Origin: Patescibacteria group bacterium
Lineage (GTDB): Bacteria > Patescibacteriota > Minisyncoccia > Phycocordibacterales > PALSA-1337
Reading direction: 5' to 3'
DNA length: 64,000 bases
Assembly: GCA_018970245.1 (NCBI GenBank)
Contig: JAGWWT010000002.1
Coordinates: 24,067 to 88,066, forward strand
Below the pieces are notes generated by a model, which saw only the letters and a list, made by a program, of their open reading frames with translations, did no database searches and was not told the origin of the DNA. Below are positions 3,863-58,212 of this stretch, in pieces. Both the position numbers and the translations under genes were made by a program. The stretch's first letter is position 1. Each line of letters opens with the position of its first letter.

Positions 3863-4669
3863 TCAGCGGCGCCTCCCTCTCCAAGCGTTCCTCATCGAGC
3901 GCAGATGATCTATCGCTCCCGCTTCCTGCTCTCGGATGCTGCGTCCAGTGAGCTTGATGAAAGCATCCTCCAGAGTCGGCGTGCCTGTATCGGCCATGAT
4001 CGACTGCGGAGTGCCTGTCTTCATGATCTTGCCATGGTCTATGATGGCCACGCTGTCAGCGGTCCGCTCGGCCTCCTCCATATAATGCGTCGTGAAGAAG
4101 ACGGTGAGCCCGCGCTCCTTGTTGAGCTTCTTTATGTATTCCCAGATATGGTTGCGCGTCTGGGGATCGAGGCCGGTCGTCGGCTCGTCCAGGAACAATA
4201 TGGCCGGCGTATGCAAGAGCCCTCGGGCGATCTCGAGGCGCCTCTTCATGCCGCCGGAAAAGGTCTTGACCAGGTGGTCCTTGCGATCGGAAAGGTCAAC
4301 GAAATCGAGCATCTCGGCTATCCTTCCTGGCGTCTCGGCGCGAGGCACTCCGTACAATCCGGCGTGGAAATAGAGATTTTCATACGCTGTGAGCTCATCA
4401 TCGAGCGAAGGGTCCTGAAAGACGATGCCGAAAGAGTGCCTGACCTTGTGCGGATCGCGCGTCGGGTCGAAGCCGTTCACGACTATGCGCCCGGAAGTCG
4501 GCCGTTCCAGAGTCGTAAGCATCTTTATGCTGGTCGTCTTCCCGGCGCCGTTAGGGCCCAAGAATGCGAAGACCGATCCGGCAGGGACATCGAAAGATAT
4601 ATCGGAAACGGCCTTTATGGGGCCGTATTCTTTTACTAGGTTTTTGACGGATATCCGCGATTCCGACAT
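3863..4669 (-). CDS. ABC transporter ATP-binding protein (DrrA-like)
   Basis: Walker A GPNGAGKTT, signature SGGMKRRL, Walker B ILFLDEPT. Confidence 0.9.
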   Translation of the reverse strand: MSESRISVKNLVKEYGPIKAVSDISFDVPAGSVFAFLGPNGAGKTTSIKMLTTLERPTSGRIVVNGFDPTRDPHKVRHSFGIVFQDPSLDDELTAYENLYFHAGLYGVPRAETPGRIAEMLDFVDLSDRKDHLVKTFSGGMKRRLEIARGLLHTPAILFLDEPTTGLDPQTRNHIWEYIKKLNKERGLTVFFTTHYMEEAERTADSVAIIDHGKIMKTGTPQSIMADTGTPTLEDAFIKLTGRSIREQEAGAIDHLRSMRNAWRGRRR

Positions 4670-4714
4670 TAGGTTGCTTAATATACTATCACAGCGAGCC
4701 GAATGGTGCGGCGC

Positions 4715-5098
4715 TTAGATCGAGAATGGCCAGGGCATCGAGATAGCGAACATCATGGCCACAGCTCCGATCAGGCCGATATTCTTCCAGAAATTTATCG
4801 ATTGGGCCATCTTCATGTTCGGATCAGCCACATTCCAGTAATCATGCATCTTGAAGGTGACGGGGATGAGGAATACGAGAAGGCAGACCAAACCGACGGC
4901 CGGCCACAGACCGAGGACCATAGACAAGCCTCCGGCGAGGAGGAGCAGCCCTGTAACGATTATGGCGAGCTTGGCCGCTGGGACGCCCTTAGAAGAGGCG
5001 TATGCGACCGTGCCCTGAAAGCCGCTGAAGTGCCTATAACCGTTCCGGAGCCAGTAGAACCCGAATATGAGACGGCCGATGAAGAATATCGTAGTCAT
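4715..5098 (-). CDS. DoxX-family membrane protein
   Basis: 127 aa, 4 TM helices, DoxX-like hydrophobic pattern. Confidence 0.6.
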   Translation of the reverse strand: MTTIFFIGRLIFGFYWLRNGYRHFSGFQGTVAYASSKGVPAAKLAIIVTGLLLLAGGLSMVLGLWPAVGLVCLLVFLIPVTFKMHDYWNVADPNMKMAQSINFWKNIGLIGAVAMMFAISMPWPFSI

Positions 5099-5193
5099 GA
5101 TGAAACGTTTTTATATGAACGCTCGTAATAATTACACTGTGCCCATATATTGTGCCTTTTAATAGATACGAAATCAACTAATCATTCACAAAT

Positions 5194-5646
5194 ATGCCAA
5201 ATAACATACACAGGTTCAGCCCCCATATCCGCTTCCCCAACGGAAAATGCCGCGAAGGGATGGAATTCTATAAGAGCGTGTTCGGCGGAAAGCTAGACTT
5301 CATGACGGTCGGGCAAGCGCCGCAGGATGTGATCAAGAACATGCCTAATATCCCGAAAGATAACGTCATGCACGCCTCCCTCGACAGCGAAGGATTCAGC
5401 ATCCTGGGAGCAGACCAGATGCGCGATCCGGTAGTCAAAGGCGACCAGGTCACGATCATGGTCGAGCTCTCGAACCAGAAGGAGGTCGACGACAAGTTCG
5501 CCAAGCTATCTGTCGGCGGACAGGTCTTCATGAAGCCTGAGAAGATGTTCTGGGGCGGATACTACGGCTCCCTCACCGACAAGTACAGCGTCGAATGGGC
5601 GCTGCATTGCAGAAGCAAGGAGGAAGGAGTAAGGAGGAAGGAGTAA
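5194..5646 (+). CDS. VOC/glyoxalase-fold protein (PhnB-like)
   Basis: NGKCREGMEFYKSVFGG motif typical of PhnB-like VOC proteins; C-terminal tail created by a 14-nt tandem duplication. Confidence 0.55.
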   Translation: MPNNIHRFSPHIRFPNGKCREGMEFYKSVFGGKLDFMTVGQAPQDVIKNMPNIPKDNVMHASLDSEGFSILGADQMRDPVVKGDQVTIMVELSNQKEVDDKFAKLSVGGQVFMKPEKMFWGGYYGSLTDKYSVEWALHCRSKEEGVRRKE

Positions 5647-5658
5647 GGAGGAAGCGAC

Positions 5659-5688
5659 AAAAAAGCCGCGGGATCGAAATCCTGCGGC
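5659..5688 (-). terminator. rho-independent terminator after pyrE-like/pyrF operon (coordinates approximate)
   Basis: hairpin GCCGCGGGA-N6-TCCTGCGGC followed on the minus strand by TTTTTTGTCGC. Confidence 0.55.
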
Positions 5689-5707
5689 ACTTACTCCCAA
5701 AAGAATA

Positions 5708-6397
5708 TCAAGCTTTTCCTGTCAGTTGTGCCCAATTCGTTTTTGGCCGAACTCGTACCGAACCGCTCTTGCAAAACGGACATTCTGCCGGATCCCAAAC
5801 CTTGATGTCGTAATGCGCGTATGGCACGATCCTCGTCTGTTCGATCTCGGTCACATCTGACCGATGGACGAGGACACCGGCCACTGGCGCGAATTTGATC
5901 GGGTACTCATGGAAGGCTCGGATGCCCTTGCGGACTTCTTGGAATGTGAGGGCCGTTGTCATGAGCTCTTCGACTTGGAGAACGACCTCGTTCTCCTCGA
6001 TCTTGAACCTCTTCCAAAGCTGACTCTTCCCTTCTCCTTTTTCAGTGAAGTCGTGATTGGCACCAAGCCAAACCGCCACGTTCTGCGAAAGGGTCGCGCC
6101 GGCGTGGTCGGAGCCGACGACCCAGTCTATCGGACCATCGTACGCACTGCGGATCGCGAGTGTCAATTCCCGCGCCAAGAGAAAACCGATGCGCGAGAAT
6201 CGAAGCAACCGCAATACGTCGGCAAAGCCGTCGCTGCACTTGCCCGATGTCAGCTCGGCATGCGGTGCTTGGGGCTGGCCCGAATGCAGCCAAAGCGCCT
6301 CTGCAGATTCGAGCATCTCTCGAAACTTATCGAGAGTGACAGAATCGACATGATAGAAGGCTGGCTCAAGACTACGCTGGAATTCCAAGAGGTTCAT
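5708..6397 (-). CDS. pyrE: type I phosphoribosyltransferase, orotate phosphoribosyltransferase-like
   Basis: PRPP-binding-like motif VVLQVEELMTTALT; 4-nt overlap (ATGA) with the upstream OMP decarboxylase gene. Confidence 0.5.
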   Translation of the reverse strand: MNLLEFQRSLEPAFYHVDSVTLDKFREMLESAEALWLHSGQPQAPHAELTSGKCSDGFADVLRLLRFSRIGFLLARELTLAIRSAYDGPIDWVVGSDHAGATLSQNVAVWLGANHDFTEKGEGKSQLWKRFKIEENEVVLQVEELMTTALTFQEVRKGIRAFHEYPIKFAPVAGVLVHRSDVTEIEQTRIVPYAHYDIKVWDPAECPFCKSGSVRVRPKTNWAQLTGKA

Positions 6398-51425: not shown

Positions 51426-52004
51426 TTGTTTGATGTGGGATCGTTTGATGCGGATAGTGGGCCCATTATATCAGGACTGGCTGAAACGCGTTATACTTTG
51501 CAGATGCGCGATTCCCCATTTGCGACCAATACAGCGGCGACGATATTCACGGCGATCGTCTATCAGCTATTCACAGCCCTGGATATCGGCAGCTCGATGA
51601 TGATTCTGAAGGAGAAAATGGCCTCCATGGAACATGCGGGAACTTCTCGGTTCGAACCGGTCATGGATTTCTTCAAAGACTGCAAACAAGCCGCGGTTTT
51701 AGCGAAAAGCGGCAAGCCGAAGGAATTACGCGAATTCTTCCAAAAAGTCGGTTCGAACCCGCTCGTCCTCGACCGCGCCCTGACCGCAACCGCCCGCGCC
51801 CCCTTCGCCCTGGTGAGAGCCCTTCCGGAAAACGCCAAGGGACATGCGGGCGGCGCGGCAGGAGGGGTCTGGGGAGGAATGCCGCGCCGCCCTCAATCAT
51901 GCGATGCGACTGCGTCTTTTTTGGGCGATTCCGAGTTTTTTGCGAAATTGCTGGAATTTTTGAATGATGTTCGAACTTTTTTCGCCGAGAATCCTCGCAC
52001 CTGA
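51426..52004 (+). CDS. hypothetical protein (start uncertain; strong RBS AAGGAG before internal ATG near 51618)
   Basis: only plausible frame in the region; internal repeats EFFQKVGSNP / EFLNDVRTFFAENP. Confidence 0.3.
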   Translation: MFDVGSFDADSGPIISGLAETRYTLQMRDSPFATNTAATIFTAIVYQLFTALDIGSSMMILKEKMASMEHAGTSRFEPVMDFFKDCKQAAVLAKSGKPKELREFFQKVGSNPLVLDRALTATARAPFALVRALPENAKGHAGGAAGGVWGGMPRRPQSCDATASFLGDSEFFAKLLEFLNDVRTFFAENPRT

Positions 52005-52184
52005 ATGGTTGCGCCTCGCATTCGCTCGGCGCTCGGATAGGGCGGACGGCGGCCTGGGGGTGTGGGGGGAGGTCGCCGTCCGCCCTTACTGCATTTTTGA
52101 CGCCTCCCTGGCGTTCGCGGGGGCGGTTCAAGATCAATCATAGCAAATCTCAATCGTCGCAGGAATCGCAAGGTTAAGTGACTC

Positions 52185-52268
52185 GAAGCGGCCCACTTCT
52201 TGAAGAAGTCGGCCGCTTCTCTATGGAGCTTGTGGCTCATTTCATAGATTTGAGCCACAACCGTTTTT
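52185..52268 (+). terminator. about 35-nt near-perfect palindrome followed by a second hairpin plus T5 (terminator)
   Basis: GAAGCGGCCCACTTCTTGAAGAAGTCGGCCGCTTC then TTGTGGCTCA-N11-TGAGCCACAA CCGTTTTTG. Confidence 0.55.
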
Positions 52269-52287
52269 GAGTGATCCACAGAGTTTT

Positions 52288-53055
52288 TCAGCGCACAAAG
52301 CGGTATTTTGCGTGTCTTGGAGATCCTTCGCGGACTAGACGTCCTTGCCTTACGAGATCGACGAGATATCTGGTCGCTGTGGCGTCAGATACCCTCGTGA
52401 GCTTCTGGACTTCATCGTTGGTGACGATTTGGTGTTGTTGGGCATGTTCGATAACTATTTCCAGTTTCTTTTGCCTGTGTTCTTGGATTTTCTGGCGTTC
52501 TTTGGTTCTGATTTCGTTCAGATGTTGCAGATCAGGGTTTGTTGCAGGAGTTTGTGATGTTGGCGCTGGATTGCTCGGCGCAGGCGCAGGCGTTGCCGGT
52601 GTTTGCGGTGATGGTTGGGTCGCTTGTGTCGGTGTTGGCGTCTCCGGTGTTGGAGCCTGTGGAGGTTGCGCCGGCGATTGCGGCTGTGGCGCTAGCGTAG
52701 TCTGTGCCGCCGGCGCAGACGCAGAAGATTCAGGAGCTTGTTGAGGAGATTCGGTCGGAGTTTCTGATTGAGCCGGCTCAGTTGGTGACGCGTCCGTGGT
52801 TTCAGGCGTTTGTGGTTCACCGCTGGTATCGTCGATCGGTTGAGGCTCGGATCCTGGCGCAGGTTCTGGCTCTTTCGGCGGTTCATCAGGAGCCGCCGGA
52901 CTCGGGTTCGGTTCTAGACTTGGCTGCGCAGGCGTTGATGGCTCTGGAGCAGGTCCGGCGGGCACGGCAGATGCCGGAGCTGGCGCGAGCGTAGAGGTAT
53001 CTATATTTTGGTCCTTGTTTTCTTCCATATTTTGCTTGTAATTCCAACGGCTCAT
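52288..53055 (-). CDS. Pro-rich low-complexity protein with C-terminal winged HTH
   Basis: N-terminal about 170 aa P/A/T/E/Q-rich; C-terminal IVTNDEVQKLTRVSDATATRYLVDLVRQGRLVREG wHTH; likely true start is the internal ATG 27 nt downstream (MEENKDQ). Confidence 0.5.
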   Translation of the reverse strand: MSRWNYKQNMEENKDQNIDTSTLAPAPASAVPAGPAPEPSTPAQPSLEPNPSPAAPDEPPKEPEPAPGSEPQPIDDTSGEPQTPETTDASPTEPAQSETPTESPQQAPESSASAPAAQTTLAPQPQSPAQPPQAPTPETPTPTQATQPSPQTPATPAPAPSNPAPTSQTPATNPDLQHLNEIRTKERQKIQEHRQKKLEIVIEHAQQHQIVTNDEVQKLTRVSDATATRYLVDLVRQGRLVREGSPRHAKYRFVR

Positions 53056-53078
53056 CGGCGTTGAGCCGTTAAAACCCT
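53044..53078 (-). promoter_or_regulatory. conserved palindromic element, copy 1 (AACGGCTCA-N7-TGAGCCGTT)
   Basis: about 35-nt block shared with 58874-58908; overlaps the annotated start of 52288..53055. Confidence 0.55.
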
Positions 53079-53296
53079 TGTATTTTTTAGTGGAATGCGA
53101 TTAACTGTCAGCCTCTATTATACTGAACATTATGCCTCTGCAAAATACCTTGATCATTCAATGCCCCTACATTATTCTACGAATATGAACAGGCCGTTTA
53201 ATGCAATCTGCTGAGCCACAGACCATTGACAATTGACTGATTATCATTTATATTATTTTCAGTGCTCGTTAACAACAGAATAGGAGAAATCACAAA

Positions 53297-53842
53297 ATGA
53301 AAACAAAGGACAGACAGGCTTTCAACGCCTTGAATGGGAAAGGCTCGGAGCGCGCTGATCGTTTGCATCGATTTCTCATGGAATCGGGCTTTGATTTCGC
53401 GACGGGTGTGCCGTGCGGAGTGTTGAAACATATCATAGCCAATTTGGTTGGCGATAAACGGGTATGTCATGTGCCCGCCAATCGCGAATCGGAAGCTATA
53501 GGACTTGCTGCCGGAGCATATCTGGCCGGTAAGAAACCGCTGGTGTATATGCAGAATTCGGGATTATTCGCAGCGTCTAACGACATCGCTTCATTGCTAG
53601 TGCCGTATGGAATACCGGCGTTAATGCTGATATCTTACCGCGGTTGCGAAGGAGAAGACGCCGTTCAACATCTGACTACCGGCCATGCGACGGAAAATCT
53701 GATCCGATCATTCAATCTGCCATATGAAGTGTTTGACGGCCGGAAACGCGACATAAACGCCTGCGTTTCCGTCTTGATCGGTCTGATGACCGAAAGAGAG
53801 CTTCCGGCGATACTTCTGCTGAAGAGAGGATGGTATGTATGA
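53297..53842 (+). CDS. TPP-dependent sulfopyruvate/phosphonopyruvate decarboxylase-like, alpha subunit (ComD-like)
   Basis: 181 aa; TPP-enzyme N-terminal (pyrimidine-binding) domain pattern GFDFATGVPCGVL...ANRESEAIGLAAGAYLAGKKP. Confidence 0.7.
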   Translation: MKTKDRQAFNALNGKGSERADRLHRFLMESGFDFATGVPCGVLKHIIANLVGDKRVCHVPANRESEAIGLAAGAYLAGKKPLVYMQNSGLFAASNDIASLLVPYGIPALMLISYRGCEGEDAVQHLTTGHATENLIRSFNLPYEVFDGRKRDINACVSVLIGLMTERELPAILLLKRGWYV

Positions 53843-54411
53843 AAAGAGCCGACGTCATTGAGATCGTAGCGACTTCAACACAATGCGACGACGTCATCGT
53901 TGCGACTACCGGGTTGATATCCAGAGAACTATTCGAAAGATTCGACTCCGAGAGGAACGTGTATATACCGGGTTCAATGGGATTGGTTTCATCCGTGGGA
54001 TTAGGCATAGCCTTGTGTGACACAAATCACAGGGTGGTGATAATAGACGGAGATGCTAGCCTACTCATGAACTTGGGTTCAATGGTAACTATTGGATCAA
54101 GGAGACCGAAAAATCTCCTCCATATAGTGTTGGACAACGGCGCATACGCGTCGTGCAGCGAGGAATCATCCATGTCCGGAACGGCAAACTTCGGATTATT
54201 GGCTAAAGATGTAGGCTACAAATATACCGCTACCGTTGGCGACAGAGAAGCATTAAAACGTGCTATACTGTCGTTCAAGGGCGGCCCGGGATTCTTGTCT
54301 GCCATAACGGAACTTGGAGGACGGCGAGATTTTCGCCGGCCGCAAAAGCTCAAAGAGATCAAAAGACGGTTCATGAGATTCATGAGCCGGCAACCAAAAG
54401 GAAAAATATGA
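53830..54411 (+). CDS. TPP-dependent sulfopyruvate/phosphonopyruvate decarboxylase-like, beta subunit (ComE-like)
   Basis: TPP-binding motif GSMGLVSSVGLGIAL...IDGDASLLMNLGSMVT...LDNGAY; 13-nt overlap with alpha gene. Confidence 0.7.
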   Translation: MVCMKRADVIEIVATSTQCDDVIVATTGLISRELFERFDSERNVYIPGSMGLVSSVGLGIALCDTNHRVVIIDGDASLLMNLGSMVTIGSRRPKNLLHIVLDNGAYASCSEESSMSGTANFGLLAKDVGYKYTATVGDREALKRAILSFKGGPGFLSAITELGGRRDFRRPQKLKEIKRRFMRFMSRQPKGKI

Positions 54412-55250
54412 TGTTTCAAGGAAAAAAAGTATTCAACGCATCGTTCGACGCCTATGCCGACGATTATCACGAAGTCCGGCCGGGATATCCCGACCAGATG
54501 TTCAACGATATCAAGGCTCAATGCGGCATAACCGGTGACTCTAAGCTCCTGGAGATAGGGGCCGGCAGCGGCATAGCCACGAAAAAGCTGGCCGAGTTCG
54601 GTTGCAAGATAACCGCGCTCGAGCCAGGATCGAATCTGGCACGCATCGCCAGAAAACACACCTCCAAACTGCAAAATGTGGAGATAATCGAGGACACATT
54701 CGAATCCTTTCAACCGAAAGGAAAATTCGACACCGTCTTGGCGTTCACGGCGTTTCATTGGGTTCCCGGAAACGACAAATACGGAAGAGCTATGGAACTG
54801 CTCAATGATTCCGGGAGCTTGGTGATAGTATGGAACAGCTTTCTACAGGATCATTCCGCCGTGACCGCCGAAGTCAACGAGGCCTACGACAGATTGTTGC
54901 CGACGGTCTACGGTAAGATCGGGGACTCTTCGGAAATCAACAAGAGGGTCTTGGCCAAGCTGACTTCAAGGGAAAGGGAAATATTTCTCAACGATCGCCT
55001 GTATCCGGTATTCTTGCGGAAATACACCGCCAGATACAACTACGACGACAAGACCTATCCTCAACTGCTCAATACGTTCCCGAAGATAGTCGGAACCGAG
55101 GATTCCGTGCGCAGCTCGTTTCTCCGAGAAGTGTCAGGGATCATCAAGCGCCACGAGATGATCACGGTACCGGTCCTCACGACAGTCGTGATCTGCAGAC
55201 GCAGAGAGTCATTCTTGCGAATGACCGTAAATGAAGACAGAGAGGAGTAA
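54408..55250 (+). CDS. class I SAM-dependent methyltransferase
   Basis: motif I LLEIGAGSGIATKKLAEFGCKITALEP; 4-nt overlap upstream. Confidence 0.7.
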   Translation: MMFQGKKVFNASFDAYADDYHEVRPGYPDQMFNDIKAQCGITGDSKLLEIGAGSGIATKKLAEFGCKITALEPGSNLARIARKHTSKLQNVEIIEDTFESFQPKGKFDTVLAFTAFHWVPGNDKYGRAMELLNDSGSLVIVWNSFLQDHSAVTAEVNEAYDRLLPTVYGKIGDSSEINKRVLAKLTSREREIFLNDRLYPVFLRKYTARYNYDDKTYPQLLNTFPKIVGTEDSVRSSFLREVSGIIKRHEMITVPVLTTVVICRRRESFLRMTVNEDREE

Positions 55251-55252
55251 GT

Positions 55253-56344
55253 ATGATAGACACAGAAAGGCTATTGCAGCTTTCGCGGCAATACAGAACG
55301 CCGCTGGAAGATACGATGTTTATATCGCTCAACATGAGCGGTGTGAGCTTCAAATGCGATTACAACAGGATGCGGACAGCCGTAAGGCTGGAAAATCATG
55401 AGCTGTTCGGATATGCGGAGGAACGAAATGAACTTGAATATTATTTCGCCCTGCCGATAAACGACTCTAGCCCGTTCCGGATATCCGGCGACGTTCTGTC
55501 GTTAGGAGACACGGCGATAGGCTCCACCGTCGGAGCGACGGAAGATATCTGCGATTCGCACTATCCGAGAAGGCGAGGCACTTCGCTGAATCTTAACCCC
55601 AATTCTCGGACATCTTGCCGCGGTTGCGAATTCTGCTACACCGCGTATCAAGTGCCGTGCGACAGGAAAAAACTGAGGGATCGCCGAGATCTCGAGGAAT
55701 TTTTCGAGGGGTGGATGAAAGGACGATGCTTATCGGATCTGTCCGGTCTCATCCAAGTATCAGTCGTGACAGGATGTTACGACGGCGGCAAGGAAGTATG
55801 CCGTTTCATCTTGGAACTAAGGAGCGTATTGAGCCGATACGGATTCAACGGTTCGATATTCTATCTTGGTTCTCAGTTGACGACGGAAGACGAATTGAGC
55901 CGCTTGGAAGCGGCCAAGCCAGTCAGTGTATGTTATTCGCTGGAGACGTTCGAGAGACGCGAGTTGTTGCGAGATAAAAAGCGCTTACTCAGCCTTAATA
56001 GAGCCGTTGAGCTCATGGATTTCTCCAGGGAGTCAGGATACGAGACCAGCTTTTCCTATGTCATTGGCTTGGAGCCTTTGCACATAGTGGGCAAGCACTT
56101 CTCTTATCTGAAAGATCACATCAACAAATTCCCCATCATCAACACTCTGCAGATACACAAATATCACAGAGCCGAATTGGCCGATCCGAGCGTTGACGGA
56201 CCGGAATATTACTTGAGAGCGAGACGGCTTCTTGAGCAGATATTCTCGGATACGCCCATGAGGCCGCTGGTTTGGGAGAATTATCGCAGCTTATGGTTTC
56301 TGACCTTCAACAACGAACCGCTATATGGTTGGAGAACGCCTTAG
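55253..56344 (+). CDS. radical-SAM-like protein with non-canonical CX2CX2C cluster motif
   Basis: SRTSCRGCEFCYTAY (Cys triad with aromatic before the third Cys) about 120 aa from the N-terminus; 363 aa. Confidence 0.4.
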   Translation: MIDTERLLQLSRQYRTPLEDTMFISLNMSGVSFKCDYNRMRTAVRLENHELFGYAEERNELEYYFALPINDSSPFRISGDVLSLGDTAIGSTVGATEDICDSHYPRRRGTSLNLNPNSRTSCRGCEFCYTAYQVPCDRKKLRDRRDLEEFFEGWMKGRCLSDLSGLIQVSVVTGCYDGGKEVCRFILELRSVLSRYGFNGSIFYLGSQLTTEDELSRLEAAKPVSVCYSLETFERRELLRDKKRLLSLNRAVELMDFSRESGYETSFSYVIGLEPLHIVGKHFSYLKDHINKFPIINTLQIHKYHRAELADPSVDGPEYYLRARRLLEQIFSDTPMRPLVWENYRSLWFLTFNNEPLYGWRTP

Positions 56345-56364
56345 ACCTAAGCTTGGACACTAAC

Positions 56365-56397
56365 AGCCATGCGACATCCGTCCGCATGGCTTTTTTA
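56365..56397 (+). terminator. rho-independent terminator between convergent units
   Basis: AGCCATGCG-N9-CGCATGGCT then TTTTTT. Confidence 0.75.
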
Positions 56398-56409
56398 TGT
56401 TCTAATTAT

Positions 56410-56871
56410 CTAAACATCTATCTCCTCGCCATCCGGAAATATTTCTGATATTTTTTCAGACGTTTCGCGCAATTGTCCGTCGAACAGCAGGTAATTCCCC
56501 AATTGCGTAAATGGCACCCATGCGTACGACCTCACTTCGCCTTTCTTCGGTCTGACATCGTATGTACCGACCAAGCGAAACCCGAAAAAGTATCTTTCCG
56601 AACCGTCGTATTTTTTGCCGTCGCGATTCATTGTGATCACCTTGAATCTGAAACGCACGGGTACATGACTCCGTCCGACTAACTCGAGGGAACTTTTTTC
56701 TATGCCGAGTTCCTCGCGCACTTCTCGATACACGGCATCTTCCAATGTTTCTCCCTGCTCGACTCCGCCGCCCGGAACGGCGAAATACTTATTTTCAAAA
56801 GACTCCAGATTGACAAGGAGAAATTCCTTATTACTGTTCATTATGAGAGCTGATACGCCTTTTCTGTACAT
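56410..56871 (-). CDS. NUDIX hydrolase
   Basis: Nudix box GGGVEQGETLEDAVYREVREELGI. Confidence 0.8.
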   Translation of the reverse strand: MYRKGVSALIMNSNKEFLLVNLESFENKYFAVPGGGVEQGETLEDAVYREVREELGIEKSSLELVGRSHVPVRFRFKVITMNRDGKKYDGSERYFFGFRLVGTYDVRPKKGEVRSYAWVPFTQLGNYLLFDGQLRETSEKISEIFPDGEEIDV

Positions 56872-56901
56872 GGCGATAGTATAACAAAGTAGTAATTACA
56901 G

Positions 56902-57654
56902 TTATATTCTCCTCCTCAACACCGTAATGTTCCGCCCGCCTGGATAAGGTTTCTTGGCCGCATCGAAATCGCTGAAGTCGGAGACGTGTTCCCATTTACT
57001 GGTAGCCTCCGCTTTGGCGATAAAATCATTGATTCTATATAATTTCCTTGTCTCGGTATGTTCTATCACTTTTTTCTCGCCGTTCTCCTCTATCTCCAGT
57101 ATTATCCTTGCGTCAGATAACCCATTTCGCTCATCTATCCATTTAGGATCATAAGTGGTGATCACCTTTACACCGTCTCGCTCCATCTCCCATGTCTGGA
57201 TTCCGAAATCTTCCGGAAAGAAAAGTACGGCTCCGTCCAGAAAGTACAGACCTCCGCCCCTTACAGAGTGTGCCACCGAATCCATATGGCTCTGCAATTC
57301 ATGGTCATCAGTCACATAGAACGAGCCCAGGAAAAGCAAAGCGCAGTCGGCTTGTTTATTCGTGCGGAAGTTTCTTAAATCTCCTCGGATGATTTCGGCC
57401 TTGAGTCCCAAATCTTCTATAGTCTTTGTTGAATATTCGATCATCTCCTCATTCTGTTCCAAACCGACATAGTCGTAGCCTCGCCGGCACAACTCGCTCA
57501 TGTGCGGACTATTACCGGACGCTATCTCCAAGACTGTCTTTACCGGTATCAGCGATTCATTCTTTATGATTTGCTCGAGGAAATCTACTTCCTTCGCGAT
57601 ATCTCGGAATGAAAAAGCTATATCGTAATATTTTGGATTATCGTAGACATCCAT
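56902..57654 (-). CDS. class I SAM-dependent methyltransferase (TylM1/small-molecule N- or O-MTase-like)
   Basis: YYDIAF...VLEIASGNSPH motif I, acidic motif II. Confidence 0.7.
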   Translation of the reverse strand: MDVYDNPKYYDIAFSFRDIAKEVDFLEQIIKNESLIPVKTVLEIASGNSPHMSELCRRGYDYVGLEQNEEMIEYSTKTIEDLGLKAEIIRGDLRNFRTNKQADCALLFLGSFYVTDDHELQSHMDSVAHSVRGGGLYFLDGAVLFFPEDFGIQTWEMERDGVKVITTYDPKWIDERNGLSDARIILEIEENGEKKVIEHTETRKLYRINDFIAKAEATSKWEHVSDFSDFDAAKKPYPGGRNITVLRRRI

Positions 57655-57675
57655 AGGGTCGTAATATTTACAGCT

Positions 57676-58203
57676 CTATACTAAATACTCTCTAATTTCC
57701 TCAAAATCCTCGTATGAGTGATCGTCGCCTTTGCACACAATAAGATCCAGTGACCCAAATTTTCCCTCAGCTTGCTCTCTCCTTATATCTTCCGCCGAAG
57801 CCACGGGATCATGATCATTCTGAATGAGCGTCGTCGGCACGGAATAATCAGATGACCAAGCATCAATATCAAAACGGTTCTTCCTAGCCCATTCCGGAGG
57901 CAAACCTAGAAATACGCACCTGCCTATGCGTTCCGCCGCAATCGTTTTCGAATGAATGGAAAGCATGAACAATACGGTACCTATGGACTTGGCAAGAATA
58001 GCAATATCTCCACTGAAAGATCTCGCCGTATTTGTCAATTTCTTCAGTTCAATCTCCATATCTATCAACTCGCCGCCACTTGCCCAGTGGTCATAATATT
58101 GGACGGAAATTGATTTGAAATCGTCGGCAAAATAATCGCGCGCTTTTTCCGCCCATTCCTTATTTGACGCGCCGTTGCCTGGAATGATCATGAGGTTGCT
58201 CAT
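57676..58203 (-). CDS. alpha/beta-hydrolase (YdeN/RBBP9-like serine hydrolase)
   Basis: 175 aa; IIPGNGAS start and AKSIG nucleophile-elbow-like motif. Confidence 0.55.
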   Translation of the reverse strand: MSNLMIIPGNGASNKEWAEKARDYFADDFKSISVQYYDHWASGGELIDMEIELKKLTNTARSFSGDIAILAKSIGTVLFMLSIHSKTIAAERIGRCVFLGLPPEWARKNRFDIDAWSSDYSVPTTLIQNDHDPVASAEDIRREQAEGKFGSLDLIVCKGDDHSYEDFEEIREYLV

Positions 58204-58212
58204 AATTTCGTG

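Follow-up and report, generated by a model that had tools for sequence, protein, structure and literature searches.

Does a protein with a single cysteine cluster, one residue short of the radical SAM motif CX3CX2C, belong to the radical SAM enzymes, or is it a different Fe-S protein? The initial annotation of an open reading frame in the window, as we call a 64,000-nucleotide stretch of a Patescibacteria contig (JAGWWT010000002.1), left both answers standing. We favor a divergent radical SAM enzyme, on the basis of aligned relatives with the CX3CX2C motif, the lack of a conserved fourth cysteine, and matches to the Pfam profile PF04055. We estimate the probability at roughly 65% that the ORF product truly belongs to the superfamily, has a SAM-cleaving cluster, and acts in a pathway linked to a TPP-dependent enzyme. 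The protein, referred to here as the rSAM protein, is a member of a previously undescribed family of ~350–400 amino acids, in which a novel N-terminal domain is joined to a beta/alpha core.

Operon structure in the window

The rSAM gene is the last gene of a four-gene operon, which lies between a promoter-like site and a terminator and encodes a ComD-like protein, a ComE-like protein, a methyltransferase, and the rSAM protein, in that order. The features of the operon are as follows.

53226..53254, + strand: promoter-like site TTGACA-17-TATATT, with 11 of 12 consensus matches, from a consensus scan only
53297..53842, + strand: 181-aa ComD/RhiE-like protein, the alpha subunit, with the PYR domain, of a split TPP-dependent decarboxylase (PF02776, E = 2e-5)
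53830..54411, + strand: 193-aa ComE/RhiF-like protein, the beta subunit, with the PP domain, of this decarboxylase (PF02775, E = 4e-12)
54408..55250, + strand: class I SAM-dependent methyltransferase MT1, 280 aa (Methyltransf_11/25/23 at residues ~45–140), C-terminal half unassigned
55253..56344, + strand: putative radical-SAM-superfamily gene with a Cx2Cx2C motif, ATG-to-TAG ORF, 363 aa
55253..55567, + strand: N-terminal domain of the rSAM protein, residues 1 to ~105, two helices and a beta sheet, family-specific
55559..56242, + strand: predicted radical-SAM beta/alpha core, residues ~103–330 (secondary structure, structural alignment, and motif conservation)
55613..55639, + strand: codons of S-C122-R-G-C125-E-F-C128-Y, the proposed [4Fe-4S] ligands (translation and conservation)
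56365..56397, + strand: intrinsic terminator, hairpin AGCCAUGCG...CGCAUGGCU followed by U6, common to the operon and a convergent NUDIX gene

The promoter-like site is ~40 nt upstream of the first gene, and a GGAG ribosome-binding site precedes the ATG at 53297. The beta-subunit gene overlaps the alpha-subunit gene by 13 nt, the MT1 gene overlaps the beta-subunit gene by 4 nt, and the rSAM start codon is 2 nt past the MT1 stop, with GAGGAG just upstream. The RNA fold of the terminator had an energy of −16.7 kcal/mol (z = −4.96), and none of 200 shuffled sequences folded as well. This hairpin was not reported by the scan that gave the promoter-like site.

The two decarboxylase subunits scored under the cutoffs of the curated models that they match best, those of phosphonopyruvate decarboxylase (TIGR03297) and of the sulfopyruvate decarboxylase ComDE (TIGR03845 for alpha, TIGR03846). 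The alpha subunit reached 113.5 bits with TIGR03845 (cutoff 148) and 109.6 bits with TIGR03297 (cutoff 312.5), and the beta subunit 156.2 bits with TIGR03297 (cutoff 312.5) and 137.3 bits with TIGR03846 (cutoff 221.5). Judged from these sequence scores, the subunits belong to the wider ComDE/Ppd clade and are neither equivalog. Like ComDE and RhiEF/Ppd, the enzyme is split into an alpha (PYR) and a beta (PP) subunit, each of ~180–190 aa and encoded by overlapping genes; unlike them, the pair accompanies a radical SAM enzyme and is substituted by a phosphoketolase-family protein in other lineages. The nearest solved relative of the beta subunit was RhiF (PDB 9IZ3_B, E = 3e-24), the beta subunit of phosphonopyruvate decarboxylase (PMC12141560). 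No coenzyme M genes were found near the ComDE-like pair. The nearest PDB matches of MT1 were generic class I methyltransferases.

Cysteine motif and predicted fold of the rSAM protein

The rSAM protein contains 10 cysteines, at positions 35, 100, 122, 125, 128, 136, 159, 175, 183, and 227. As the initial annotation had stated, SCRGCEFCY is the only place where three of them are close in sequence, and the translation reads C122-x2-C125-x2-C128, one residue under the canonical spacing. If 10 cysteines were placed at random over 363 positions, the expected number of C..C..C patterns would be ~0.008 by our own arithmetic. The triad was invariant in all 120 close homologues and present in 71 of 73 divergent full-length representatives; it is a selected feature and neither a chance arrangement nor a sequencing error. 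The aromatic residue noted directly before the third cysteine also holds up across the family, F127 being F in 67 of the 73 representatives; Y129, which follows this cysteine, is not conserved beyond the close clade.

The motif types of the 73 representatives bear on how the short spacing is to be read. The Cx2Cx2C form occurred in 62 of them and CX3CX2C in eight, and in three (P0212, P0229, and P0260) the triad was lost altogether. In the alignment, the eight CX3CX2C members share every column of the motif with the others and differ by one extra residue between Cys1 and Cys2; Cx2Cx2C is therefore the radical SAM loop minus one residue at this place. These eight members are found on deep branches and are also nested within the Cx2Cx2C clade. 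Since both spacings occur in one family and one operon type, the deletion seems to be functionally tolerated. The family thus provides a naturally occurring comparison of how the length of the loop affects the geometry of the cluster and SAM.

Among the 73 representatives, no fourth cysteine is conserved as a ferredoxin-type cluster requires: the cysteines of the triad were the only ones conserved at ≥ 97%, and the next two reached 74% and 68%. C35, C100, C175, and C227 were considered as ligands of an auxiliary cluster and dropped, as they are near-invariant in the close clade and unconserved family-wide.

The profile search that the initial annotation had proposed gave a divided result. Among close relatives, 74 of 120 matched PF04055 at E ≤ 0.01 (best 2.9e-7); the rSAM protein itself scored 19.6 bits, under the gathering cutoff of 29.5. 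NCBIfam models matched neither this protein nor four distant relatives, and searches of PDB chain sequences with the protein and the family alignment, by sequence and by profile, returned nothing useful. The family is missed both by filters for the CX3CX2C motif and by the Pfam threshold, and its members are therefore mostly annotated as “hypothetical protein.”

We examined the fold in a structure model of the rSAM protein (pLDDT 88.8, pTM 0.89). The predicted structure contains the partial or full (beta/alpha) TIM-barrel core of the radical SAM superfamily; the non-TIM-barrel fold named in the initial annotation as grounds for rejection was not what the prediction gave. The best Foldseek matches were LipA (E = 1.6e-7), SuiB, AprD4, BioB, MqnE, viperin-like enzymes, and NosL, and ~220–230 residues of the core superposed on LipA, MqnE, HydG, PylB, and BioB in structural alignments. 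C122, C125, and C128 come after strand 111–114, which is beta1 of the predicted structure; the cysteine loop is modeled with the lowest confidence (pLDDT 55–68, residues 120–140). The core also carries the conserved motifs VTG(C)F at the end of beta2, T/S-x-E-x-F-x2-R-x6-K after beta4, Y-x2-G-x-D/E at beta5, and F-P-x2-N/Q at beta6. Within these, T173-G174 (beta2 end), T/S229-x-E231 (beta4), G272-x-D/E274 (beta5), and P294 (beta6) are at the places expected for the SAM-binding motifs of the superfamily (GGE-like at beta2, ribose motif at beta4, GxIxGxxE at beta5, and the beta6 motif), and by analogy with known enzymes they may provide the SAM contacts. A profile comparison with E. coli BioB by hhalign gave a match too weak to serve as evidence (E = 0.006, probability 5.9%).

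Ahead of the core, the ~120 residues described earlier as preceding the motif and as having no recognizable family were counted as 121 before Cys1, and indeed had no Pfam or NCBIfam match. The N-terminal ~105 residues were confidently modeled, yet the structure search found no structural relative for them.

The structurally nearest canonical radical SAM enzymes (PF04055) are LipA (4U0P), MqnE, HydG, PylB, NosL, ThiH, and BioB. The rSAM protein differs from canonical members in that its first spacer has two residues and theirs three, its sequence identity to them is only 10–18%, and its N-terminal domain is unique to the family; it also has no counterparts of the cysteines that serve the auxiliary clusters in LipA, BioB, and HydG. 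Variation in spacing is accepted inside the superfamily (PMC9477430). In non-canonical families such as the HmdB/HcgA type (CX5-), the distance between Cys1 and Cys2 varies and the C-x-aromatic-C end and the fold are kept, as here. However, the superfamily survey lists only longer first spacers (the RadicalSAM.org megaclusters with CX4-, CX5-, CX6-, CX7-, CX8-, CX9-, and CX11-CX2C; PMC9477430), so those variants lengthen the spacer that this family shortens. ThiC (CX2CX4C) shares the two-residue first spacer, but it carries the cluster in a separate C-terminal domain and differs in active-site architecture (PMC4389238). In the literature searched, we found no radical SAM enzyme whose cluster motif is CX2CX2C and no biochemical precedent for SAM binding by one. 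If the present reading is true, the range of the radical SAM cluster motif extends below CX3. A literature match from C. perfringens was another enzyme, of 418 aa and with the canonical motif.

Family distribution and gene linkage

Homologues of the rSAM protein were found in Patescibacteria, in DPANN archaea, and in Treponema lecithinolyticum, and also in plasmid gene clusters of Clostridium perfringens (30 plasmids), Streptomyces, Nocardia, and Mycobacterium. The plasmid clusters look biosynthetic, containing adenylation domains, an ACP, exporters, and an APH-type kinase. A search of phage genomes gave no match. Several hosts are in culture (N. farcinica IFM 10152 with pNF1, S. goshikiensis NBC_00909, C. 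perfringens, and T. lecithinolyticum ATCC 700332), which makes the function directly testable. Homologues from these four species include WP_011212325.1 of N. farcinica, WP_331735037.1 of S. goshikiensis, WP_004456851.1 of C. perfringens, and WP_021687687.1 of T. lecithinolyticum.

We analyzed the neighborhood of the rSAM gene in 43 distinct loci. A TPP enzyme was encoded within 6 kb in 37 of them, of the ComDE-like type in 26 and of the XFP-like type in 11; in the other six no TPP partner was present in this range. The four-gene order of the window recurs in CPR loci with unrelated flanks, which are housekeeping genes that vary by locus, and the alpha-subunit gene keeps the same cassette position in related loci. 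MT1 is co-conserved with the rSAM gene in cassettes of both types, and an archaeal member with the canonical motif (P0159) has the same ComDE-like partner. P0144 is another member with the canonical motif. The XFP-like partners contain the XFP_N, XFP, and XFP_C domains (E down to 1e-80), are 679–751 aa long, and scored 347–513 bits against NCBIfam phosphoketolase cutoffs of at least 777. Compared with xylulose-5-P/fructose-6-P phosphoketolase (XFP), they form a divergent branch that occurs in biosynthetic-looking clusters and not in central metabolism.

That the rSAM gene is paired with either of two unrelated TPP enzymes points to a compact, undescribed small-molecule pathway, and the literature searched contained no paper on the gene cluster. 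The pathway would be present in DPANN archaea and in CPR bacteria with reduced genomes, two groups that keep few biosynthetic operons, and also in plasmid clusters of the major pathogen C. perfringens and of Streptomyces.

Nucleotide-related genes also recurred among the neighbors and included NUDIX (the window, L007, L025, and L037), a nucleoside hydrolase with pyrF (L043), weak GGDEF-like proteins (L043 and L044), and HADs resembling nucleotidases. ORFs of ~150 aa beside DPANN homologues (L029, L030, and L038) were considered as diadenylate-cyclase-like, an assignment that Pfam did not support and that we dropped. These ORFs and the 147–155-aa ORFs of actinobacterial loci are lineage-specific, and are related neither to each other nor to the C-terminal half of MT1.

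Proposed function and rival explanations

The analysis shows the fold, the motif homology, the lack of a fourth conserved cysteine, the structure of the operon, and the linkage of its genes. For the preferred reading, we infer Fe-S binding, SAM cleavage, and the following order of steps. C122, C125, and C128 would hold three irons of a [4Fe-4S] cluster, and because there is no fourth protein ligand, the fourth iron would be open to chelate SAM. Reduction of the cluster would lead to cleavage of SAM and to a 5'-deoxyadenosyl radical, which would take a hydrogen from a small-molecule substrate. The enzyme would act in a compact pathway together with a TPP-dependent enzyme that cleaves C–C bonds and, in most cases, a HAD phosphatase, a SAM methyltransferase, or both. 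The part of the TPP enzyme would be taken by the ComDE/RhiEF-like split 2-oxoacid decarboxylase here and by the divergent phosphoketolase-family protein elsewhere. In our working model, the TPP enzyme may produce or consume an aldehyde or acyl unit of two carbons (X-CH2-C), and the radical enzyme and the methyltransferase may then elaborate this unit.

A bolder version of this reading is offered tentatively, as a possibility that we do not expect to hold. It states that the family supplies the radical enzyme of an undescribed pathway, coupled to TPP chemistry, that leads to a small bioactive metabolite, and that it would be the first radical SAM family shown to bind SAM on a cluster in a sub-canonical CX2CX2C loop. 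A minimal version (decarboxylase, methyltransferase, and radical enzyme) would have spread among Patescibacteria and DPANN symbionts, and elaborated plasmid versions in Clostridium perfringens, Streptomyces, Nocardia, and Mycobacterium would have added adenylation enzymes, an ACP, exporters, and a resistance-type kinase. The radical enzyme may act directly on the TPP-derived enol/enamine or on the aldehyde product, and either, if true, would be new radical chemistry.

Two rival explanations question what the cluster does. CX2CX2C is the classical spacing of 4Fe ferredoxins, in which it binds three irons of one cubane. Accordingly, the protein might have a radical-SAM-like fold, no SAM cleavage, and a ferredoxin-type redox centre, taking electrons, for example, from hydroxyethyl-TPP of the neighboring enzyme in a minimal pyruvate:ferredoxin-oxidoreductase arrangement. 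The constant adjacency of a TPP enzyme would fit such a partnership, as would the Pfam score under threshold, and the spacing has been described as a 4Fe ferredoxin motif (PMC9431491). We nevertheless consider this explanation, including its electron-transfer example, unlikely. The spacing is identical to that in the ferredoxin motif CX2CX2CX3CP, but the family has no conserved fourth Cys or Cys-Pro, the fold is the radical SAM barrel and not that of a ferredoxin, and the motif occupies the site of the radical SAM loop. Moreover, the aromatic residue before Cys3 is kept, and relatives with CX3CX2C occur in the same operon type. Phosphoketolase-type chemistry is non-redox, and yet XFP-like proteins stand in for the decarboxylase. 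Alternatively, the shortened loop might alter the seating of SAM, so that another C–S bond is cut (to a 3-amino-3-carboxypropyl or methyl radical, as in Dph2) or SAM is used in some other non-canonical way. Dph2, ThiC, and PhnJ are exceptions without the canonical motif and with unusual cluster geometry (PMC9477430 and PMC4389238), the loop is shorter than every variant in the survey (PMC9477430), and a SAM methyltransferase is co-conserved. However, the two spacings interchange even between sister sequences and in the same gene context, which argues that the spacing is mechanistically neutral, and the overall core matches ordinary 5'-dA-forming enzymes; we therefore hold this explanation to be improbable.

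The remaining rivals concern the biological role. The TPP subunits match the phosphonopyruvate and sulfopyruvate decarboxylase families best, and the nearest structure is RhiEF of rhizocticin biosynthesis; the pair might thus decarboxylate phosphonopyruvate or sulfopyruvate, with the radical enzyme replacing PEP mutase or modifying the aldehyde. In known PepM–Ppd pairs, Ppd adjoins the enzyme whose unfavorable equilibrium it pulls. We regard such a phosphonate or sulfonate pathway as quite improbable: both subunits are under the curated cutoffs of both families, and the decarboxylase is swapped in 11 loci for a phosphoketolase-family protein, inactive on 2-oxoacids. In addition, a crude regular-expression scan (not a profile) for the PEP mutase signature EDK-x2-7-N-S/T gave no plausible PepM in the window and 44 related loci (586 kb), and the PEP_mutase family was absent from the precomputed Pfam lists of the neighbors. 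It is very doubtful that the protein serves a mobile defence or antagonism module as a viperin-like enzyme that modifies nucleotides. The occurrence of homologues on plasmids of cultured bacteria, the recurrent nucleotide-related neighbors, the viperin-like enzymes among the Foldseek matches, and the lower GC of this part of the window than of the remainder would all be consistent with it. However, neither the rSAM protein nor two distant relatives nor the TPP subunits had a match in PADLOC, the phage genomes were negative, the housekeeping flanks of the CPR cassettes differ per locus, and the plasmid clusters look biosynthetic. On neighboring genes, PADLOC reported generic methyltransferase and NUDIX domain matches only. 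Finally, we consider it extremely unlikely that the triad binds zinc or is purely structural in an inactive relic of a radical SAM enzyme. The three representatives without the triad suggest that some members manage without it, but its presence in 71 of the 73 representatives, the conservation of the core residues T173, G174, E231, R236, K243, and G272, and the strict operon partnership indicate an active enzyme under selection.

The rSAM gene and its operon

The putative radical SAM gene (rSAM) is the last of four closely packed genes, which together form a cassette with a split TPP decarboxylase (the ComDE-like pair) and a methyltransferase (MT1).

Features of the cassette (window positions)
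53226-53254: near-consensus promoter-like site, TTGACA-17-TATATT
53297-53842: first gene, ComD-like TPP alpha subunit
53830-54411: ComE-like TPP beta subunit, overlapping the alpha gene by 13 nt
54408-55250: class I SAM methyltransferase (MT1), overlapping the ComE-like gene by 4 nt
55253-56344, + strand: rSAM gene, ATG to TAG, 363 aa, 2 nt after the methyltransferase gene, GAGGAG upstream
55613-55639, + strand: codons of the cysteine motif SCRGCEFCY
56365-56397: strong hairpin followed by U6 (-16.7 kcal/mol, z -4.96)

The initial annotation described this protein correctly in all details. Translation of 55613-55639 gave C122-x2-C125-x2-C128, and no other three of the protein's 10 cysteines are closely spaced along the chain, so that SCRGCEFCY is indeed its sole cysteine cluster. 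The stretch of about 120 residues said to lack a recognisable family comprises 121 residues before the first cysteine, which matched no family in Pfam or NCBIfam. By our own arithmetic (10 cysteines placed randomly over 363 positions), about 0.008 C..C..C patterns are expected by chance; conservation of the triad across the family weighs more heavily against a chance origin.

When 5.8 billion proteins were searched, 199 relatives were identified, nearly all of about 363 aa and mostly from Patescibacteria/Paceibacterota MAGs; one, 100% identical, bears the annotation [quoted passage not shown]. An exhaustive search of 1.84 billion representatives with the family profile detected 318 proteins at E ≤ 1e-3, of which 92 reached E ≤ 1e-30. 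When one genome per species was scanned, the family was found in several CPR lineages, in the DPANN archaea Aenigmatarchaeota and Micrarchaeota, and in gut MAGs with the label Clostridia; the same scan found it, at 28% identity, in a cultured spirochaete, Treponema lecithinolyticum ATCC 700332. Tblastn with a divergent member as the query identified 39 plasmid records: 30 from Clostridium perfringens, 5 from Streptomyces, 3 from Nocardia (including N. farcinica IFM 10152 pNF1), and 1 from Mycobacterium intracellulare. All four cultured homologues that were translated contain Cx2Cx2C.

Six MAGs whose CPR-type cassettes show 49-60% identity (L012, L015, L017, L019, L020, L031) are titled "uncultured Gammaproteobacteria", and three with a phosphoketolase-type partner (L021, L023, L034) "uncultured Clostridia". 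These labels may be erroneous or may be a sign of horizontal transfer.

Cluster motif, fold and family assignment

C122, C125, C128 and Y129 were invariant in 120 aligned members (49-66% identity), and the three cysteines remained invariant in an alignment extending to 18% identity. Of the 73 full-length sequences compared (72 representatives plus the window protein), 62 had Cx2Cx2C, 8 had CX3CX2C and 3 had no triad. The motif had been described as one residue shorter than canonical; in the alignment, relatives with canonical spacing (e.g. P0144, CKGGCRFC; P0159, CIGKCTFC; P0238, CPGGCVYC) carry exactly one more residue between the first and second cysteines. The aromatic residue noted before the third cysteine is F in 67 of the 73. 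The triad alone reached 97% conservation in this set; at 74% and 68%, the next-best cysteine positions provide no universal fourth ligand. On these sequence grounds, the motif is homologous to the cluster loop of radical SAM enzymes after loss of one residue, and a triad of this kind fits a putative cluster that leaves one iron free for SAM. In ferredoxins, a CX2CX2C sequence is known to ligate three of the irons in a cubane, and we infer that SAM could bind productively on this loop. In a rough midpoint-rooted NJ tree, six canonical members lay on deep branches, and P0144 and P0159 nested within the Cx2Cx2C clade, each sister to a Cx2Cx2C sequence; the spacer thus changed more than once, in a tree insufficiently robust for counting the events. 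The RadicalSAM.org survey lists variants from CX4- to CX11-CX2C and none below CX3 (PMC9477430), so the motif of this family is shorter than every catalogued variant. In the literature searched, no radical SAM enzyme was described with CX2CX2C.

In P0135 and P0201, an additional cysteine lies four residues upstream (N-C-R-S-x-C-x-G-C-x-F-C), so that CX3CX2C and CX2CX2C overlap in the same stretch. The three full-length sequences without the triad (P0212, P0229, P0260) lie in one subclade and may be inactive paralogues or faulty gene calls or alignments.

The initial annotation had left a choice between a divergent radical SAM enzyme and a different Fe-S protein. The AlphaFold2 model of the window protein, built from the family alignment, had a pLDDT of 88.8 and a pTM of 0.89, with alternating strands and helices from about residue 103 on; confidence was low only near residues 120-140, the cluster loop, as expected for an apo model. 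In a Foldseek search of the PDB, lipoyl synthase was the top hit (E = 1.6e-7) and SuiB, AprD4, BioB, MqnE, viperin-like enzymes and NosL came next; no departure from the TIM-barrel type of fold was seen. The PF04055 profile gave a divided answer: the window protein scored 19.6 bits, under the Pfam threshold of 29.5, whereas 74 of 120 relatives matched at E ≤ 0.01. A ferredoxin-like role is disfavoured by the predicted fold, the missing fourth cysteine and the relatives with a canonical motif. The radical SAM identity is supported by the fold, the profile matches among relatives and the canonical-motif members. The window protein represents a new, uncharacterised family within this known superfamily, distinguished by a cluster motif below the catalogued length range, a novel N-terminal domain and a conserved TPP-enzyme partnership.

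Association with TPP enzymes

The four-gene order was kept in every CPR locus with a homologue at least 49% identical and sufficient flank, and the genes around these cassettes differed and were unrelated between loci. In more divergent lineages, a phosphoketolase-family protein (XFP) replaces the ComDE-like pair. The XFP-like proteins scored 347-513 bits against phosphoketolase cutoffs of at least 777, indicating a divergent branch.

Gene orders with XFP (HAD, HAD phosphatase; MTase, methyltransferase)
Three gut MAGs: XFP-MT1-rSAM
L028: rSAM-HAD-XFP
Treponema: rSAM-XFP-HAD
L037 and Streptomyces goshikiensis: HAD-rSAM-XFP-enolase-like-HAD-MTase-creatininase-PhyH-Sua5, adjoining an APH-type kinase
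N. farcinica and M. intracellulare: rSAM-enolase-like-HAD-(GGDEF-like)-XFP-MTase
C. perfringens plasmids: rSAM-XFP-PHP-MTase, 3' of genes for an ABC-2 exporter, a BtrH-like protein, adenylate-forming enzymes, an ACP and a HAD

A TPP enzyme was located within 6 kb of the rSAM gene in 37 of 43 distinct loci (26 ComDE-like, 11 XFP-like); of the remaining six, two were contigs with < 1 kb of flank, two were DPANN loci and two were the deepest branches. The ComDE-like pair also follows the archaeal, canonical-motif member P0159. The partnership extends from CPR and DPANN symbionts to gene clusters on plasmids of cultured pathogens and actinomycetes. Replacement of one partner by a non-orthologous enzyme of the same cofactor provides good evidence that the two are functionally linked, and suggests that the pathway requires either a two-carbon intermediate bound to TPP or the product of that intermediate. 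An X-CH2-C(OH)=TPP species can be formed by either enzyme type; any choice of the species used, and any order of steps proposed for the cassette pathway, would be an inference.

The TPP subunits best matched phosphonopyruvate and sulfopyruvate decarboxylases, with scores under the curated cutoffs of both, and the closest solved structure was that of RhiEF, which acts as a split phosphonopyruvate decarboxylase in the rhizocticin pathway (PMC12141560). A classical phosphonate pathway is argued against because no plausible PEP mutase signature was present in the window or 44 related loci, and because XFP takes the place of the decarboxylase elsewhere. Searches of PADLOC and a phage collection gave no match for the rSAM or TPP proteins.

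Other gene arrangements were observed. Two CPR loci that are unrelated to each other (L003, 1-2095; L005, 14528-16681) each have, no more than about 8 kb from the cassette, a canonical radical SAM/SPASM protein (439-473 aa) together with a TehB/UbiE-like methyltransferase. In the L010 MAG (4577-6001), the ComE-like subunit and methyltransferase form a single 474-aa ORF, which may be a natural fusion or may stem from a frameshift in the assembly. On N. farcinica pNF1 (L043, 15850-17950), XFP-MTase is immediately followed by two more genes annotated "radical SAM protein" and by another methyltransferase gene; upstream lie a nucleoside hydrolase gene and a plasmid-borne pyrF, which hint that the actinobacterial version involves nucleoside-related chemistry.

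Genomic surroundings

The GC content drops at about 52 kb, from about 0.55-0.60 (1-52000) to 0.42-0.52 (52001-64000), and the cassette lies in the low-GC part, possibly an acquired island; no tRNA or integrase was seen in the window. The 53-59 kb block is flanked by two ORFs that have in common a winged-helix-like segment at the C-terminus, containing an "ATATRY" motif, and that gave only weak DUF977/AbiEi_4 matches. Past the operon terminator lie convergent genes, including one for a NUDIX hydrolase; NUDIX genes also occur near the cassette in L007, L025 and L037, and a loose association is possible.

Features around the cassette (window positions)
52288-53055, - strand: flanking ORF, N-terminus of about 180 residues highly enriched in P, A, T, Q and E
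56410-58857, - strand: NUDIX hydrolase, second class I methyltransferase, alpha/beta-hydrolase-like protein and histidine phosphatase
58908-59321, - strand: flanking ORF, hydrophobic N-terminus
59469-61291, - strand: three ORFs (137-236 aa) without a Pfam match, preceding the helicase
61313-63658, - strand: ResIII/SNF2-type helicase, 781 aa
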